Part shown: in pieces, positions 22,728 to 32,000 of the stretch | Layout: every line of letters begins with the position of its first letter | Numbering within the stretch: position 1 is the stretch's first letter | NCBI RefSeq assembly: GCF_001457595.1 | Contig: NZ_LN831039.1 | Location: 360,001-392,000 of the forward strand | From: Mycolicibacterium smegmatis | GTDB lineage: Bacteria > Actinomycetota > Actinomycetes > Mycobacteriales > Mycobacteriaceae | DNA length: 32,000 nt | Direction: 5' to 3' | Program-made: the position numbers and the translations under genes | The notes under the pieces: generated by a model | The model's input: the letters and a program-made list of their open reading frames with translations, nothing else | What the model was told of the DNA's origin: nothing | Database searches by the model: none

Positions 22728-23027
22728 GTGGGCTCACCGCTGAAAGTTGCTCCAGGTCAACTGCGCTCGGCCGCCGCGGAAGAGGTCGCGCTCGGCACGG
22801 CCGTCGCGGCCCTCGGTGTCGGAGATCTGCTGAGTGCCGCGGTCGCAGCGCTGCCGCGCCTGCAGAGCGGCAAGGCCTGCGGACATGCCGCGGTGATCGT
22901 GGATGCGGCGGTCAAGGCCGCCGCCGACGAGGTCGCCGCCCACGCGGACAAGCTGTCGGCGGCCGCCGCGGCCTACGAAGGCACCGACTGTGCGCAGGCA
23001 CACCGGCTGATCCGAACCATGGACTGA
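22728..23027 (+). CDS. small alanine-rich helical protein, EspC/DUF2580-like (type VII secretion target-like)
   Basis: The 99-aa ORF begins MGSPLKVAPGQLRSAAAEEV..., the xLxVxPxxL opening typical of ESX-secretion-associated small proteins. It ends ...AAAYEGTDCAQAHRLI. The stop is 2 nt before the next gene's ATG. TAGGCT (22716-22721) lies 6 nt upstream of the GTG. The family call is from pattern recognition only. Confidence 0.55.
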   Translation: MGSPLKVAPGQLRSAAAEEVALGTAVAALGVGDLLSAAVAALPRLQSGKACGHAAVIVDAAVKAAADEVAAHADKLSAAAAAYEGTDCAQAHRLIRTMD

Positions 23028-23029
23028 CC

Positions 23030-24910
23030 ATGCCGGGTTCCATCTCCGAGGTCCGCTCGTCCGACCCGGATGCGCTCGTGCGGGCGGGCACCGACATCGG
23101 CAACCGCGCGGGCCTGCTGCAAACCCAGATGGACCGGCAGCAGGCGGTCATCGACGATCTGCGCCGCGGGTGGAACGGCGCGTCGGCCGACGCCGCGATC
23201 GAAAGCGCCGAACGGTCGCTGCAGCACATGCGGCGGTTGCACGATTCGCTCACCACGCTGCAGTCTGCGCTGCAGACCGGCGGTGCCGACCTGGCGCAGC
23301 AGCGCGACCGGATCGTGAACCACGTCGACCAGTTGCACGCGCAGGGGTGGCAGGTCGCCGACGACGGCACGGTGTCGATCCGCCCCGGCAGCGTGCTGGA
23401 CTTCTTCGCCAAGGTCAGCCCGGTGCAACGCGTGATGCTCGAGGCGCTCGCCGCTCGGGCTTCGGCCGAACTCAAGGCGATGCTGGCGCAGTTCGACGCC
23501 ACCGATGTGACTGTGGGAGCGCAGATCCGCGACGCGGTCGCGGGACTGACCGCCCACGGGCCCGCGCCCGCGTCGCTCCCGCCGAACAACGCCAAGGCGC
23601 TCGTGGACCGCCTCGCGGGCATGACGCCCGACGAGCGCCGGGAGTTCCTCGCGGGGTTGAGCCCCGAGACCGTGCACGAGATGGTGCTCGCCGATCCGGA
23701 GACCATGGGCAACACCGACGGCGTGCCGTTCGAGACCCGCATCGAGGCCAATGACATCAACATCCGCAACGCCCTTGAGGAGGAGTTGGCCAAGCCGTCG
23801 CCCGATCAGGCCAGGGTGCAGCAGTTACAGGCCATGCTGACCCCGATCAAGGATCCGGCGGGAACCGGAAAACTGGTGCCGCGCAAGTTCGTTGCGTTTT
23901 CGCCGGACGGCAACGGGCGCATGATCGAGATGATCGGGGAGATCAGGCCGGGCATCAAGGGCGTCGGCGTCGTGGTGCCGGGCACCAACACGAACCTCAA
24001 CGGCAGCGGCTCGAATCACGCGTCGGCGGTGGAACTGTCCAAACAGTCCGGGTCTCCGGTGTTCCTCTACATGGACGGTGACTTCCCGCAGGGCCTGGAC
24101 AAGGCGGCCGACCCGGCCTACGCGGCGTCGATGGCGCCGAAACTCGTGTCGTTCGGCCACGAGATCGACAGCGAGGTGGGCATCGGCGCTCCCGACACCC
24201 CCGTCACCTACATCGGCCACTCCTACGGCGGCGCCATCGTCGGGACCGCCGAACAGATGGGGCTGCGCGCCGACCGTGTCCTGCATGCGTCGTCGGCAGG
24301 CACCGGGATCCTCAGCGGCGAGTACACCAACCCGAACCCCGATGTGCAGCGGTTCTCGATGACCGCACCGGGCGACCCGATCAGCCTTGTCCAGTCGTTG
24401 CCGCGCGACGTGGCGATCTCCAGTGTCCCGGGCGTCGATTCCATCCCGGGCATACCGCACAACACCGACGGACGGATCGGCAACCCGCTGGGCGGCCTGC
24501 CGTCGGCGACCGACCCGGACAACATCCCCGGCGTCACGCGGTTGGACACGGGTTACTACGGCGATGAGGGCGCGCATCCCAACCAGGTCATCGTCGGGCC
24601 GGATGGGCACGGAAAGTACTGGGACGACTACGATTCCGATGCGTTCAAGAACATGGTGGCGGTCATCAGCGGTGGCGAGGCGACCGGCTATGTGGAGCGC
24701 GGCATCGAAACCAACTACGTCGACATCGATCTCGGCGACGACGGCGACTTCCGTGACGAGGCCGCCGATCAGGCGAAGGCGGGCGCCGCGCCCAAGGTGC
24801 CCCGGCTGCCATGGGATGACAACGGAACCTACGAAAGGCGCCAGCATCCGTGGGATAATCCGCGCGTGACGGACAATCCTGGACTCGGGCCGCGGGTGCC
24901 GGTGAGATGA
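23030..24910 (+). CDS. WXG-type N-terminal helical domain fused to a DUF1023 alpha/beta hydrolase (putative T7SS-secreted hydrolase)
   Basis: Track ORF is 22709..24910. The real start is taken as ATG 23030 (MPGSISEVRSSDPDALVRAG...). The N-terminal ~100 aa form a helix-turn-helix with a W-x-G turn (DDLRRGWNGASADAA). The C-terminal half has the DUF1023 pattern (VGVVVPGTNTNL...) and the nucleophile elbow YIGHSYGGAIVG (GxSxG). 626 aa. Confidence 0.75.
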   Translation: MPGSISEVRSSDPDALVRAGTDIGNRAGLLQTQMDRQQAVIDDLRRGWNGASADAAIESAERSLQHMRRLHDSLTTLQSALQTGGADLAQQRDRIVNHVDQLHAQGWQVADDGTVSIRPGSVLDFFAKVSPVQRVMLEALAARASAELKAMLAQFDATDVTVGAQIRDAVAGLTAHGPAPASLPPNNAKALVDRLAGMTPDERREFLAGLSPETVHEMVLADPETMGNTDGVPFETRIEANDINIRNALEEELAKPSPDQARVQQLQAMLTPIKDPAGTGKLVPRKFVAFSPDGNGRMIEMIGEIRPGIKGVGVVVPGTNTNLNGSGSNHASAVELSKQSGSPVFLYMDGDFPQGLDKAADPAYAASMAPKLVSFGHEIDSEVGIGAPDTPVTYIGHSYGGAIVGTAEQMGLRADRVLHASSAGTGILSGEYTNPNPDVQRFSMTAPGDPISLVQSLPRDVAISSVPGVDSIPGIPHNTDGRIGNPLGGLPSATDPDNIPGVTRLDTGYYGDEGAHPNQVIVGPDGHGKYWDDYDSDAFKNMVAVISGGEATGYVERGIETNYVDIDLGDDGDFRDEAADQAKAGAAPKVPRLPWDDNGTYERRQHPWDNPRVTDNPGLGPRVPVR

Positions 24911-25434
24911 GGCTTCGCGCAGCAGTTTTCGTGACCGCGCTGATGTCTGTGGTGCTCATCGCCGCAGGCGCATGCGGGCCCTCAGGTGAGGATTCCACCG
25001 ACGAGAAGAAGGCTCAGCCCCCGATGACACCACCGACCGAGCTGACCGTCACCGAGGCCGCGCGCGTCGCGGCCGGTTACGTCTCGATGATCCTCGGAAA
25101 ACCCGTCGACCCCGACCCGGCCATGGCGCGCAAGATCGGCTGCCGCACCGACGATGCGCTGATGTCGGTGGGCCCGCCGTGGAAGGTGCAGGTCTACGAG
25201 TGGCTCGTCGACCCCGCGCCCGAACTCGTCGAAGGTGCGCTGACACGCATCGACACCCTGCTCGACGAGGGGTTCGAACCGATCCCGTCGGATCGGCCGG
25301 ACCAGGACTCACCCACCCACAAGGCCTACCGGGACGCGCGCGGCTACGTGGTCTCGGTCAAGGCCGAGACCACCGCGGGTGGTGTCTACGGGCTCGACGT
25401 GCACGCGACCTCGCCGTGCGCCGACGAGGGTTAG
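24907..25434 (+). CDS. putative lipoprotein (175 aa), start overlaps the upstream hydrolase stop
   Basis: MRLRAAVFVTALMSVVLIAAGACGPSGEDS is a signal peptide plus a lipobox-like AGAC. The ATG at 24907 overlaps the hydrolase TGA (ATGA, 24907-24910). No recognisable enzymatic motif. Confidence 0.7.
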   Translation: MRLRAAVFVTALMSVVLIAAGACGPSGEDSTDEKKAQPPMTPPTELTVTEAARVAAGYVSMILGKPVDPDPAMARKIGCRTDDALMSVGPPWKVQVYEWLVDPAPELVEGALTRIDTLLDEGFEPIPSDRPDQDSPTHKAYRDARGYVVSVKAETTAGGVYGLDVHATSPCADEG

Positions 25435-26529: not shown

Positions 26530-26674
26530 GGCTGAACTGTAAAGCAGATGACTGAGGTGTACGTCACTTACGCATCCCCTGCGCGCCGGGCCCACCCCAG
26601 CTGGCGCCGGGACACGTCCGCCGTGGCGCCTAGAGTAGGGCCGATGCATACGCTGCGGATCGGAGGGAAGCGAC

Positions 26675-28141
26675 ATGCCCGACGCTGATGTCGGTCGTCC
26701 GTCGTTGCAGCGGCTCCACGAGCTCAACCGTGAGGTGGCCGAGTCGCGGTCGGTGCGGCTGCTCGTGGCCAACAACCTGGCCGGATACCTCACGCTGATG
26801 GAACGTCACCTCGATCGCGGGACCAAGCTCACCGAGCCCGAACTCGTCGCCCGGCTCGAGCGCGATCTGGCCGATCTGGGCGCCGACGGCGAGCAGTCGG
26901 GGCTGGCGCTCATCAAGTACTGGGCGAGCCAGGGCTGGCTGCACCGCATCACCGAACAGGCCGGCGACGGTGAGCGCAACGTCTGCTACCTGACCTACGA
27001 GGCCCGCGCGGTCCTCGACTTTGCCCGCCGGATGCGCCGCGAGGACACCATCGCCACCGGCGGCTCGATCGCGGGCATCGCGGCGGGTCTGCGCAGGGTG
27101 GCCGGTCAGGTCAGCAACGACCCCGAGCGCATCCGCGCCGACATCGAGGCCGAGATCGACCGTCTGCGCGCCGAACTCGACGCGCTCGACGAGGGACGCC
27201 GCCCCGAGCCCGACCCGCTGGACGTCGAGGACGAGGCGCGTGCGATCGCACTGCAGATGGAACAGATCATCTCCGACATCGGGCAGTACGGCGCGATGCT
27301 GAACCGCATCACCACACGCCTGCTCGACGCGTCGGCCGACAGCGACGTCGGCTACCGCGAACGCCAGCGGCAGCTGTTCGACGACTACGAATCGCTGTTC
27401 GCGTCGCGCGAGAGCGCGTCGTACACCGCGTTCACGCGCATGATCCAGGATCCCGAGCAGCGCGCCGCGCTGGTGGCCGACATCGAGCTGGTGACCAGCC
27501 AGCTGCCGCAGCTCGACCCGAGCCTGCGCGAGGTGATGTCCGGGTTCTTCACGCTGGTGTCGGCGCAGACCGCCGAGGTTGGCCGCACCCGTCAGCGGTG
27601 TGCACGCCGCATCAAGCGCTTCGTGGCGTCGGGCACGCTGGAGGAGAGCCGTGGCGTCACCCGCCAGCTCAACGATGCCCTTGCGGCCGCCAACGCCCTG
27701 CTGAGCGTGTCCCTGGCCGACAGCCGCGTCGGGTTCGAGGTCCCTCTGGCGCGTGCCGACTTCAACTCGATCGGCGCGGTGGCGTTCAAGATCCGCGACG
27801 CGGTGCCGCCCACGCCCGCGCAGCCGTCCGAGGGCGAGGTGAATCTGTCGGCGTTCGGCGCGCTCGCCGCGCAGGTCGACGCCACCGAACTCGCCGAACT
27901 CGTCAACGACACCGTCGTGTCGCGGCCGCTGCCGCTCAACGAGGCCATCGGCATGCTCGACTCGGCGTATCTCGGCCACGTCATCGTGCTGTGGTCGTGG
28001 GCCCTCAAGCAGCCTGCCGTCGGCAACGCCGAGTCGGTGCGGGTGCGGTTCCGTTCTCTGGAAGGCCCCGACCGCGAAATCGAAGTGCCGAAACTGGTTT
28101 TCACCGAACCGATCCCGATCGTCAGCGAGAGTTTGTTATGA
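26675..28141 (+). CDS. jetA: Wadjet JetA / EptA (DUF3375, MksF-like kleisin subunit)
   Basis: The 488-aa ORF has a GGAGGG Shine-Dalgarno (26662-26667) 7 nt upstream of the ATG. It is helical, has no catalytic motifs, and has a central coiled segment ([21 protein letters not shown]). It is first in an overlapping three-gene set ending in an SMC-like ATPase. The family call is from size, order and sequence character, not an HMM. Confidence 0.8.
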
Positions 28142-28860
28142 GCGACACGTCCATCGACTTCGACGCGCTACCGAGCATCGACGCGGTCGAACGTTCCGCA
28201 CCGGAACGCCGCGCCCCGCGGTTCGACGGTGACGTCTCAGAGTTGCCCGACCGGGCGTGCTGGGCCCTGCAGCACCTGCTGTCGCGGCGCTACATCAGCA
28301 AGCACAACCACACCGAGCTGTGGTCGTGGGTCACCCGGTACCGCACCGAGCTCACGGTGCGGCTGTCCGAACTCGACCTGCGGCTCGTGGTGTCCGATGA
28401 CCACGAGATCGCCTACGTCGAGCAGGCCGAATACGAATCTCACTGGCGCCGTAAGCTGTTGCGCCGCGAGACACTCAACACCTACGACTCGATCCTGGCG
28501 CTGCACCTCGCCAAGCTCATGCGCAGCGCGAACCGCGACGAGAACGTGCTGATCACCCGCGAGGACATCCACGAGTTGTTCGCCGCCGTGAACAACGACA
28601 CCGACCGTGACGTCGCGTCGTTCGACCGGCGCATCGACAACGCGATCGAGCGGTTGACCGACATCGAGATCCTGGTCCGCAACCGCGAGGACGAGGACAG
28701 CTTCACGATCAGCCCTGTGATCAACGCGATCATGACCGCGTCGACGATCACCGAGCTGACCCAGCAGTTCGAACAACTCAGGCGCGCCGCGAGCGGCGAC
28801 CCGGATCCAGACCCCGACCCAGCCGCAGCCGAGGATGAAGTGGACGCCGATGGCATCTGA
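28138..28860 (+). CDS. jetB: Wadjet JetB / EptB (DUF4194, MksE-like KITE subunit)
   Basis: Track ORF 27598..28860 is trimmed to ATG 28138, which overlaps the jetA stop (ATGA at 28138-28141). This gives 240 aa: [13 protein letters not shown]...[46 protein letters not shown]... The C-terminal tail is acidic ([21 protein letters not shown]). The upstream 180 codons of the track ORF are R-rich and out of frame over jetA. Confidence 0.8.
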
Positions 28861-31800
28861 ACCGACCAACCAGTTCTATCTGTCACGTCTGCAGGTCATC
28901 AACTGGGGCGTGTTCGACGGATATCACTCGATCCCGTTCAGCCCCGCGGGCACGCTGATCACCGGTTCGTCTGGGAGCGGCAAATCCTCTCTGCTGGACG
29001 CGATCTCGCTGGCGTTCCTACCGTCACACCGACGCAACTTCAACGCCTCGGGTGACACCACCGCGGCGGGTTCGGGCACCGGCAAGCGCACGGTCGACAA
29101 GTACGTGCGCGGCGCGTGGGGCGAACGCAGGGACGGCACCAGCCGTCAGATCATGTACCTGCGCGGCACCGGACCGGCCTGGTCGGCCGTGGCGGTCACC
29201 TACTCCGACCGCACCGGGCGTGCCGTGACCGGCCTTGTCCTCAAATGGCTTGCCGCCGAGAAGACCTCGGATCCAGGAAGTCGCTACTACCTCATCGACG
29301 ACGACCGCGACATCTTCGACCTGTGCAACCGGTGGGCTGCAGGCGGGTACGACGCCTCGGTGTTCCGCGAGGCGGGCTGGAACGGCGGCCGCAGCGAGAG
29401 TCAGTACCTGGCGCAGCTGTACTCGATCATCGGCATCCGGGCCTCCGAGGCGGCGCAGCAGCTGCTCGGAAAGGCCAAGTCGCTCAAGAGCGTCGGCGGT
29501 CTCGAGCAGTTCGTCCGCGAGTTCATGCTCGATGAGCCGGCGAGCCTCGCGGGCGTCGACGAGGCGCTCGAGCAGATCAACCCGCTCGTCGAGGCGCGCG
29601 GCATGCTCGACGTGGCGCGGCGCAAACGCAACACGCTCGGCAACATCGAGGCCGTGCAGGCGCGCTACGCCGACGAGGCCGCGAAGTTCGGTGTGATCGA
29701 CACGATCGACAACGCCATGGTGCGCGACTACGTCGACCAGTTGCGGCTGCAGCAGGCGGGCCCGGAGATCGAGAACCTCGACGACCAGATCAACCAGCTC
29801 GGGGCGCAGCGCGACGACTTCGGCGCGCAGCAACGCCAGCTCAAGAACGAGCACAACGCGTTGATGGCGCAGATCAACTCGGCCTCGGTCGATCTCGTGC
29901 CGCTGCAGCAGCGGCTCAGCGAGGCCGAGAAGCTCGCCGACGAGGTGGGCCGCAGGCGCGGGGCGTACGAGGACAAGGTCACCGCGCTGCAGCTCACACC
30001 GCCCGACACGGCCGAGGAGTTCTGGTCGTTGCGCGAGACCCTCATGGAGGAGGCCGACCGGCTGCACCGCGAGCTGTTCACCGGCAACCAGGCCTACGTC
30101 GAGGCGTCGGCGAAAGAGGTGCGTGCCCGCGAGGCGCGTGACGCCGTCCAGACCGAGCTGGAACGCGTGCGGCGCCTCGGCTCGTCGCTGCCCAAGACCG
30201 AGTACGAGATGCGGGCCCGCATCGCGCGGGCGATCGGCATCCCCGAGCGCGACCTGATGTACGTCGCCGAGCTCATGGAGCTCAAGCCCGATGAGAGCCG
30301 CTGGCGCATGGCGGTCGAGAAGGTGCTGCGCGGCGCCGGTCTGCGGCTGCTCGTTCCCGAGGCACACCTCGACGCGGCCCTGCGGTTCGTCAACGAGAAC
30401 GACATGCGCGGGCGCATCCAGTTGCAGCACGTCAAGCACGACGCCCAGTTGCGCACACCCCTCGAGGGGACGCTGGCGTCCAAGCTGCAGGTCGTCGACC
30501 CCACGCATGACAGCGCGGTCGAGGCGCTCAACGTCATCGCGTCGGTCGGCGACTACATGTGCGTCGACAGTCCCGACGAGTTCACGACACACACCCGTGC
30601 GGTCACCGACCAGGGCCTGCGCAAGGACAGCGGGCGGCTGTCGATCAAGGACGACCGGTCCAAGCTTCGTCCGTCCGACTACATCTTCGTCGGCGGCACG
30701 GAGGCGAAAGTGGCCGCGCTGCAGGCGGATCTGGCCGCGGCAGAGGATGTCTACGCGGCGGCCCGCAAGGCGCGCGAACGGCTCGACCAGCACCGCGCGG
30801 CGCTGCAGGCGCGTGAACGGGCCTGCCGGGCGCTGTGTGACCAGTACATGCAGTGGACCGACATCGACACCGACTCGGCAGACGAGGCACTGACCCGCCT
30901 GCAGGACGAACTCGATCTGCTGGTGTCCGACAACCCCGACGTCGAGAAACTGCAGCAGCGCGCCGACGAATGCTGGGGGCGCGTCGAGAAGGTCATCCAG
31001 CAGATCGGCTCGCTCAACGAACGCGAGACACTGCTCGACAACCGGCGCACCGCACTTCTCGAGCTCACCGAGCGGCTCAAGCCCGGCGAGATCTCGCAGC
31101 ATGCGCGCGACACCCTCGACGGGTACGCAGCAGACATCGCGCTACCGCTGGACCTGCTCGACTCCGAGCCGTTCCGCAACGAACTCGTGCGCGTCATCGG
31201 CCGCGAACGTGACCGGTTGCGTGCCGACCGCAACCGCAGCCACGACGAGCTCGCGGGCATCATGGCGGCCTACGACAGCTCGTTCCCCGACGCGATCCCC
31301 AACGACAGCGACGATTTCGACGAGCGCGTGCACGACTACGTGGCGCTGTGCCGGCGAATCGACGAGCGTGAACTGCCCGACGCCTACGAGCGCATGCAGC
31401 GGCTCATCACCGAACAGGCACCTGGCGCGATCCTCAACCTGCACATGATCGCCGACAACGAGGCGCGGCGGATCACCGAGCAGATCGCGCGCGTCAACAC
31501 CGGGCTCGGCGCGGTCGAGTTCAACCGCGGTACGCGGCTCACGCTGCACGCGGGCACGCGTCACCTCGCGGCCGTCGACGAGCTCAACGAGATGGCCCAG
31601 CGCATCTCGGCGCGGGTGTCACTCGTGAGCTTCGGCGACGAGACCGCGATGTTCGAGCAGTACACCGACATCCTGCAGCTGCGGAAACTGTTGGCGGGCA
31701 ATACGCCCGAGGACCGGCAGTGGACGCGCGACGCCCTCGACGTGCGCAACCGGTTCGTGCTGTACTGCGAGGAGCGAGACGCCGAGACCGGCGTGGTGAT

Positions 31801-32000
31801 CCGCACGTACAGCAATTCCGGGGACAACTCGGGCGGTGAGCAGGAGAAGCTCATGGCGTTCTGCCTGGCGGGCGCGCTGAGCTTCAACCTCGCCAGCCCT
31901 GGCAGCGCCGACACCAGGCCGATGTTCGCGCAGCTGATGCTCGACGAGGCGTTCTCGAAGTCCGATCCGCAGTTCGCGCAGCAGGCGCTGTCGGCGTTCC
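28850..32000 (+). CDS. jetC: Wadjet JetC / EptC (MksB-like SMC-family ATPase), 3' end beyond the window
   Basis: Absent from the ORF track because there is no stop in the window. ATG 28850 overlaps the jetB 3' end by 11 nt. The reading frame looks open for 1050 codons: segments at 28850-29530, ~30000, ~31080 and 31802-32000 were translated by hand, and the track lists no ORF in this frame. Walker A is GSSGSGKSS (28964-28990). About 950 residues rich in E/R/L/Q/A follow, forming coiled-coil arms. The ABC signature is SGGEQ (31829-31843) and Walker B is LMLDE (31934-31948). Confidence 0.9.

Follow-up and report, generated by a model that had tools for sequence, protein, structure and literature searches.

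A 32,000-nt stretch of the Mycolicibacterium smegmatis chromosome (NZ_LN831039.1, positions 360,001 to 392,000; hereafter the window) ends in a three-gene operon, jetA-jetB-jetC, whose products belong to the protein families of type I Wadjet anti-plasmid systems. In our reading, which we consider probable, this operon is mksF-mksE-mksB (MSMEG_0368–0370), a Wadjet-derived JetABC set from a Mycobacteriales clade that lacks the nuclease gene jetD (mksG), and its products form a nuclease-less SMC complex that acts on the chromosome rather than cleaving plasmids. The family and the locus are already known, and MksB of M. smegmatis has been studied previously.

The jetABC operon and the search for jetD

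The three genes lie on the same strand with stop-to-start overlaps, as seen both in the open reading frame list and in the sequence itself (Table 1): the jetB start overlaps the jetA stop in ATGA, and the jetC ATG lies 11 nt before the jetB stop, so that these two genes share 11 nt. A preliminary description of the window had reported three co-directional genes with overlapping stop and start codons, and this was confirmed at the coordinates given here. Translation likewise bore out its 488-aa first protein, its 240-aa second protein with an acidic tail, and its third protein of > 1050 aa with the split-head order, in which Walker A stands near the N-terminus and the SGGEQ signature and Walker B (LMLDE) follow at the residues listed in Table 1.

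The family assignments, which the preliminary description had only inferred, held up in searches with profile hidden Markov models (HMMs) from Pfam and PADLOC. JetA matches the whole of Pfam model PF11855 (DUF3375; E = 6.8e-109, positions 1–474 of 474), JetB matches PF13835 (DUF4194; E = 2.4e-42), and JetC matches AAA_29 (E = 1.5e-22) and SbcC_Walker_B (E = 1.5e-17). The PADLOC models gave E = 6.4e-251 for JetA1, E = 2.1e-110 for JetB1 and 1871.9 bits for JetC1. JetC can be aligned end to end with the solved JetC chains 8as8 and 8dk2 (E. coli and P. aeruginosa; E ~1e-62); for JetB the match to a JetB of the PDB was marginal by sequence (E = 0.49), and a Sphaerotilus JetB matched nothing in the PDB. 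NCBIfam has no specific model for any of the three proteins. The SMC-kleisin-KITE architecture is common to MukBEF of enterobacteria, but a Pfam scan at E ≤ 0.01 placed no MukB, MukE or MukF family among the matches: the window proteins fall in DUF3375 and DUF4194, outside the Muk families. One segment of the C-terminal head of JetC, QLVIVATVQN, we take to be MukB-like.

The genes thus provide the JetA, JetB and JetC of a type I Wadjet, and the operon has no JetD (DUF3322 plus a JetD_C/Toprim nuclease). What is present corresponds to an MksBEF-type set, a kleisin-KITE-SMC trio without a fourth nuclease gene, with intact ATPase motifs and under purifying selection. Since jetC runs off the window, we extended it with a locus (L003, CP082846.1) retrieved by an exact JetB look-up among M. 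smegmatis chromosomes; this locus serves as an extension because it is identical over all 13,863 shared nt (100%). There, jetC stops at window-equivalent position 32206, 206 nt beyond the window, giving a full length of 1118 aa, and a convergent gene for a MaoC dehydratase (minus strand) begins 15 nt past the stop. It is followed by fabG4, encoding a 450-aa short-chain dehydrogenase (minus strand), and by the thiolase gene fadA2 (plus strand). No JetD is encoded in the 6.9 kb past jetC. The preliminary description had expected jetD just off the window, had proposed to look for a Toprim/DUF2220 gene after jetC, and had named a different gene in that place as evidence against its assignment; the MaoC gene is that different gene.

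Six JetD proteins were used as tblastn queries, namely C. glutamicum MksG (its sequence reconstructed from an alignment in the PDB), those of Sphaerotilus, G. hydrophobica and M. frederiksbergense, and two from the sister group described below. None matched in the window, in the extension or in any of 80 loci of the same clade (the best 80 of 252 relatives found in species-representative genomes), while the control JetDs recognized one another (E = 1e-33 to 1e-109). We also modelled 224 JetD proteins as a profile HMM and, with its filters switched off, searched 1.6 Mb of sequence translated in six frames; the four control JetDs alone matched (E = 1e-117 to 1e-131), and no other hit was better than E = 2. 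Protein searches with C. glutamicum MksG or G. hydrophobica JetD returned no M. smegmatis protein.

The idea of a canonical type I Wadjet, or EptABCD anti-plasmid operon, whose jetD would lie immediately after the window accords with the very strong JetA1, JetB1 and JetC1 matches, with a gene order as in Wadjet and with the fact that the nearest outside relatives are JetABCD operons. Nevertheless we judge it extremely improbable: the convergent MaoC gene and the lack of JetD within 6.9 kb refute the adjacency, none of the 80 related loci has a JetD, and the literature separates EptC from MSMEG_0370, of which mc2155 has an intact copy.

Identity of the locus and the mc2155 allele

Published tables give aftD as MSMEG_0359, fabG4 as MSMEG_0372 and fadA2 as MSMEG_0373, and published tags equate MSMEG_0368 with MSMEI_0361 and list fabG4 as MSMEI_0365. 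Counting genes from these tagged neighbours makes JetA MSMEG_0368, JetB MSMEG_0369 and JetC MSMEG_0370; the mc2155 accessions of the three proteins are consecutive (AFP36842–44). The literature presents EptC and MSMEG_0370 as two distinct MukB-like paralogs, and describes two MksB-like proteins in M. smegmatis, MksB in an operon with mksEF, and EptC, which has a role in defence and is inactivated in mc2155. By elimination MksB is MSMEG_0370, and therefore the window holds the mksFEB operon and not eptABCD. Gene order and published tags together make it most likely that the operon is mksF-mksE-mksB, separate from the EptABCD plasmid-restriction locus. It is, by the same order and tags, the locus of the M. 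smegmatis MksB that works with MksE and MksF (Pradhan et al., 2020; Bulacz et al., 2024). The statement that this same locus had been named eptABCD is accordingly not borne out. At least one recent text conflates the MksB and Ept loci. Text searches of the literature found no locus tag for eptC. For M. smegmatis, the result sets the MksB condensin locus apart from the Ept plasmid-restriction locus.

Comparison with mc2155, the efficient-transformation strain, points the same way. JetA is identical to ABK72581.1/AFP36842.1 and JetB to ABK70333.1/AFP36843.1, while JetC is one residue apart from ABK76126.1, with G710 in the window strain and E710 in mc2155. This E710G change in the coiled coil of JetC is the only difference from the M. 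smegmatis MksB operon. E710 is also found in MKD8, other M. smegmatis strains and M. goodii (position 710 is variable in more distant homologs), so the window strain has the derived allele. The allele comparison had been suggested in the preliminary description, where loss of a gene at this locus was held to underlie the transformation phenotype of mc2155; its jetC proved to be intact, full length and of the consensus sequence at residue 710, and is therefore not the gene lost in that strain. For the same reason E710G was rejected as a candidate ept mutation. None of the M. smegmatis strains examined has a disrupted reading frame in any of the three genes.

The preliminary description had further stated that the segment has no counterpart downstream of Rv0238 in M. 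tuberculosis, and this is supported: the operon lies between a TetR gene resembling Rv0238 and orthologs of htdX-fabG4-fadA2 (Rv0241c–Rv0243). M. tuberculosis has no MksB-like protein according to published work.

Relatives, conservation and origin

A wider JetC search covered 1.84 billion representative proteins. In it the clade is reduced to a single full-length representative at 59% identity; after that, full-length relatives begin at 33–34%, and the bulk of the JetC family lies at 25–30%. The nearest outside relatives are 32–33% identical; the two of them that could be placed on contigs (L098 and L099) are both jetA-jetB-jetC-jetD operons, and their own relatives are actinobacterial (Tsukamurella, Actinoallomurus, Rhodococcus, Dietzia). 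Because these nearest relatives carry jetD, the sequence comparisons support a Wadjet ancestor for the Mycobacteriales JetABC clade, followed by loss of JetD. This matches a loss-of-JetD scenario that a review has put forward for nuclease-less MksBEF, and, as the closest relatives are actinobacterial JetABCD systems, the loss in the mycobacterial clade may well have been independent. The JetD-bearing sister group would thereby document a transition from defence to housekeeping (or to a sensor-only function), one amenable to experiment in a tractable organism.

Other actinobacterial sets are more distant. M. frederiksbergense has a complete jetABCD (L097), 24–31% identical to the window proteins, and a clade-type JetC in the same species, a coexistence that resembles the MksB and EptC pair reported in M. 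smegmatis. Gordonia hydrophobica (L095, 2631–14787) has jetA-jetB-jetC-jetD, with jetC split in two, and directly after it a second jetA-jetB-jetC that has no jetD; each set shares only ~25% identity with the window proteins, and the second lies outside their clade. A search of actinobacterial plasmids gave only unannotated records or a degraded JetD-less trio, the latter on a 22-kb plasmid of Tsukamurella tyrosinosolvens (L012, 13–4682), where a truncated DUF3375 gene, a DUF4194 gene and a jetC in the form of two open reading frames (35% identity to the window JetC) occur without jetD. As a separate observation, a 42-kb record labelled as a plasmid of Stenotrophomonas maltophilia, an organism label that looks doubtful, carries a gene whose product shares 98% identity with C. 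glutamicum MksG (NZ_CP090424.1, 24642–25640).

Within the clade, the best 80 of the 252 loci (59–89% identity) come from Mycolicibacterium, Mycobacterium and Gordonia, and nearly all keep jetA-jetB-jetC. Their downstream genes are heterogeneous, with no JetD among them by Pfam, and look-ups of the homologous loci of M. wolinskyi, M. phlei and Gordonia likewise found no JetD. Ratios of nonsynonymous to synonymous substitution (dN/dS) against five species were 0.12–0.14 for jetA, 0.13–0.15 for jetB and 0.10–0.12 for jetC, and 0–0.03 for all three genes within the species. In an alignment of 10 clade sequences, Walker A, SGGEQ and LMLDE of JetC are invariant; the exception is S40 of Walker A, absent from the listed invariant positions. 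The operon has kept its place on the chromosome throughout the M. smegmatis / M. fortuitum group, and 14 of 16 close relatives retain the arrangement TetR to O-methyltransferase, jetABC, MaoC-FabG4-FadA2, with flank identities similar to that of the operon. Such synteny and purifying selection would fit a function long settled on the chromosome, not a defence island that moves rapidly.

The same data bear on whether the operon is merely a decaying, functionless remnant of a Wadjet that lost its effector. JetD is indeed absent, the phenotype of an mksB deletion is mild, and degradation of this kind can be seen in the JetABC set of the Tsukamurella plasmid. Yet with frames intact in all the M. 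smegmatis strains, dN/dS at 0.10–0.15, conserved ATPase motifs, retention in at least 80 species and in a fixed slot, and published expression and specific localization, we regard decay as very unlikely.

Several departures from the common arrangement were seen among the clade loci. In L060, L068, L074, L076 and L090, jetA is missing or displaced, or jetB lies 2–6 kb from jetC, which suggests insertions inside the operon. In four Mycolicibacterium species (L064, L066, L079, L091), an exodeoxyribonuclease III gene starts −9 to +11 nt from the jetC stop, as if translationally coupled to jetC; the proteins score 264–269 bits against the xth model TIGR00633, above its cut-off, and a conserved gene of 216–220 aa without family match follows. 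A PIF1-family helicase and a SEC-C/TPR protein adjoin the M. phlei locus (L010, 10380–14637). Co-directional genes found immediately downstream of jetC in other species and tested as substitute effectors, encoding a luciferase-like monooxygenase, fatty-acid desaturase, P450, JmjC protein, HsdM, alpha/beta hydrolases and exonuclease III, were rejected, as none is conserved across the clade.

Function, annotation and local features

By analogy with solved JetABC and MukBEF, JetA, JetB and JetC would assemble into two SMC dimers joined by the kleisin, a motor that binds DNA and uses ATP to extrude loops. Lacking a cognate nuclease, such a complex may act on the chromosome, following replication forks and affecting replisome dynamics, as published MksB work suggests: in M. 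smegmatis, MksB-HaloTag was found with DnaN in 99% of cells and was lost on replisome disassembly, and deletion of mksB lowered replisome mobility with little growth defect. Given that there is no nuclease gene, the most likely role of MSMEG_0368–0370 is local organization of newly replicated chromosomal DNA. Moreover, mc2155 keeps the operon intact yet transforms efficiently, which argues against its restricting pAL5000-type plasmids, at least as a module on its own; an anti-plasmid Wadjet role for the window locus is unsupported.

Set beside known systems, the operon has the same three families, gene order and translational coupling as the type I Wadjet JetABCD of E. coli GF4-3, P. aeruginosa PA14, C. 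glutamicum (MksBEFG) and EptABCD, but it lacks jetD/mksG and is only 24–33% identical to JetD-linked JetABC. MksBEF-type condensins without MksG are likewise nuclease-less kleisin-KITE-SMC operons with a chromosome-related role, and their published localization is at mid-cell and poles as opposed to the replisome for M. smegmatis MksB.

Some points weigh against a chromosomal role. The condensin function is taken from the literature, where the mksB deletion phenotype is, as noted, mild. Defence-related genes adjoin some clade loci: McrB/McrC and a UvrD-PD-(D/E)XK helicase-nuclease in Gordonia rubripertincta (L007, 10883–17149), and HsdM, of type I restriction, in G. terrae (L038, 10724–12469). 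Owing to the JetA1, JetB1 and JetC1 HMM scores and to sister lineages that are true JetABCD systems, a residual defence role is plausible.

The N-terminal tail of JetB belongs with these points. In an alignment of 81 JetB sequences its motif, PRFDGD..ACWALQ, is nearly invariant in the JetD-less clade, and the tails of the sister loci L098 and L099 (PRFDGDTSGMPAEACWALQ and PRFDGDTSQMPPEACWALQ, respectively) are almost identical to it. According to a review, JetB of P. aeruginosa contacts JetD through a motif at its N-terminus (IFDR). Two other JetD-linked JetBs have tails resembling the clade motif, but the JetD-linked JetB of M. frederiksbergense lacks it, so it is not a general JetD anchor. 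Its retention after loss of JetD would indicate either a JetD-independent role or a partner in trans, and its near-invariance, together with its sharing by JetD-bearing sisters, leaves room for a nuclease in trans.

One could accordingly envisage a split Wadjet, in which JetABC still detects small circles of DNA but depends on recruiting a nuclease from another locus, be it EptD or a different partner bound by the JetB tail. The tail and the reported JetB–JetD contact are in keeping with this, as are the coexistence of jetABCD with clade-type jetABC in M. frederiksbergense and the tandem sets of G. hydrophobica, although the second of those is not of the clade. We consider it unlikely, however: M. 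abscessus is reported to have JetABC with no JetD anywhere in its genome, mc2155 with MSMEG_0368–0370 intact transforms efficiently once eptC alone is lost, an identity of 24–31% to the JetD-linked mycobacterial paralog makes cross-recognition doubtful, and the JetD-linked JetB of M. frederiksbergense has no tail motif. A more speculative version, in which the whole clade would be a Wadjet sensor without a cis nuclease and the JetB tail would recruit EptD or a repair nuclease, also seems to us improbable; if true, surveillance of DNA would be linked to loop extrusion at the replication fork.

The preferred reading, a nuclease-less complex acting on the chromosome, has a consequence for annotation. 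DefenseFinder calls Mab_1490–1492 of M. abscessus ‘Wadjet_I’, yet the authors find no JetD in the genome, and the published prevalence of Wadjet in Actinobacteria is 42% (PMC12359967, PMC10482375). Because JetD-less trios are called Wadjet_I, this figure may include non-defensive operons that lack JetD. Matches to JetA, JetB and JetC HMMs alone do not make a Wadjet defence system, and defence-system annotation should treat them with caution.

Table 1. Coordinates of the jetABC operon, its motifs and its 5' region in the window, and of exodeoxyribonuclease III genes in four related loci (numbered on each locus).
Feature	Position	Strand	Description	Source
Divergent intergenic region	26530-26674		145 bp, between the O-methyltransferase gene (minus strand) and jetA	Gene calls
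-10-like hexamer	26631-26636		TAGAGT, in the intergenic region 5' of jetA	Read from sequence
Shine-Dalgarno / ribosome-binding site	26662-26667		GGAGGG, 5' of jetA	Read from sequence
jetA / mksF (MSMEG_0368)	26675-28141	+	488-aa kleisin-like subunit, DUF3375	
jetB / mksE (MSMEG_0369)	28138-28860	+	240-aa KITE-like subunit, DUF4194	
JetB N-terminal tail motif	28216-28272	+	Residues 27-45	Alignment, 81 JetB sequences
JetB acidic C-terminal tail	28795-28857	+		Translation
jetC / mksB (MSMEG_0370)	28850-32000 (window end)	+	SMC-like ATPase, codons 1-1050 of 1118; ATG at 28850	
JetC Walker A	28964-28987	+	GSSGSGKS, residues 39-46	Translation
JetC codon 710	30977-30979		G710, coiled coil	
JetC ABC signature	31829-31843	+	SGGEQ, residues 994-998	Translation
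JetC Walker B	31934-31948	+	LMLDE, residues 1029-1033	Translation
Exodeoxyribonuclease III gene, L064	10339-11121			
Exodeoxyribonuclease III gene, L066	10350-11135			
Exodeoxyribonuclease III gene, L079	10318-11085			
Exodeoxyribonuclease III gene, L091	10333-11103			

Consensus promoter and terminator scans on both sides of the operon found nothing, so promoter function upstream of jetA is presumptive. Rfam and tRNA scans of the window found no RNA family and no tRNA. Upstream of the operon, the window encodes a 626-aa protein (23030–24910) that combines a WXG100 domain, at its N-terminus, with an Abhydrolase_8 domain and whose gene is flanked by small co-directional genes of 99 and 175 aa without family match (the three spanning 22728–25434). 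In loci of the M. peregrinum type, a homolog of this WXG100/Abhydrolase_8 protein is encoded downstream of jetC instead.

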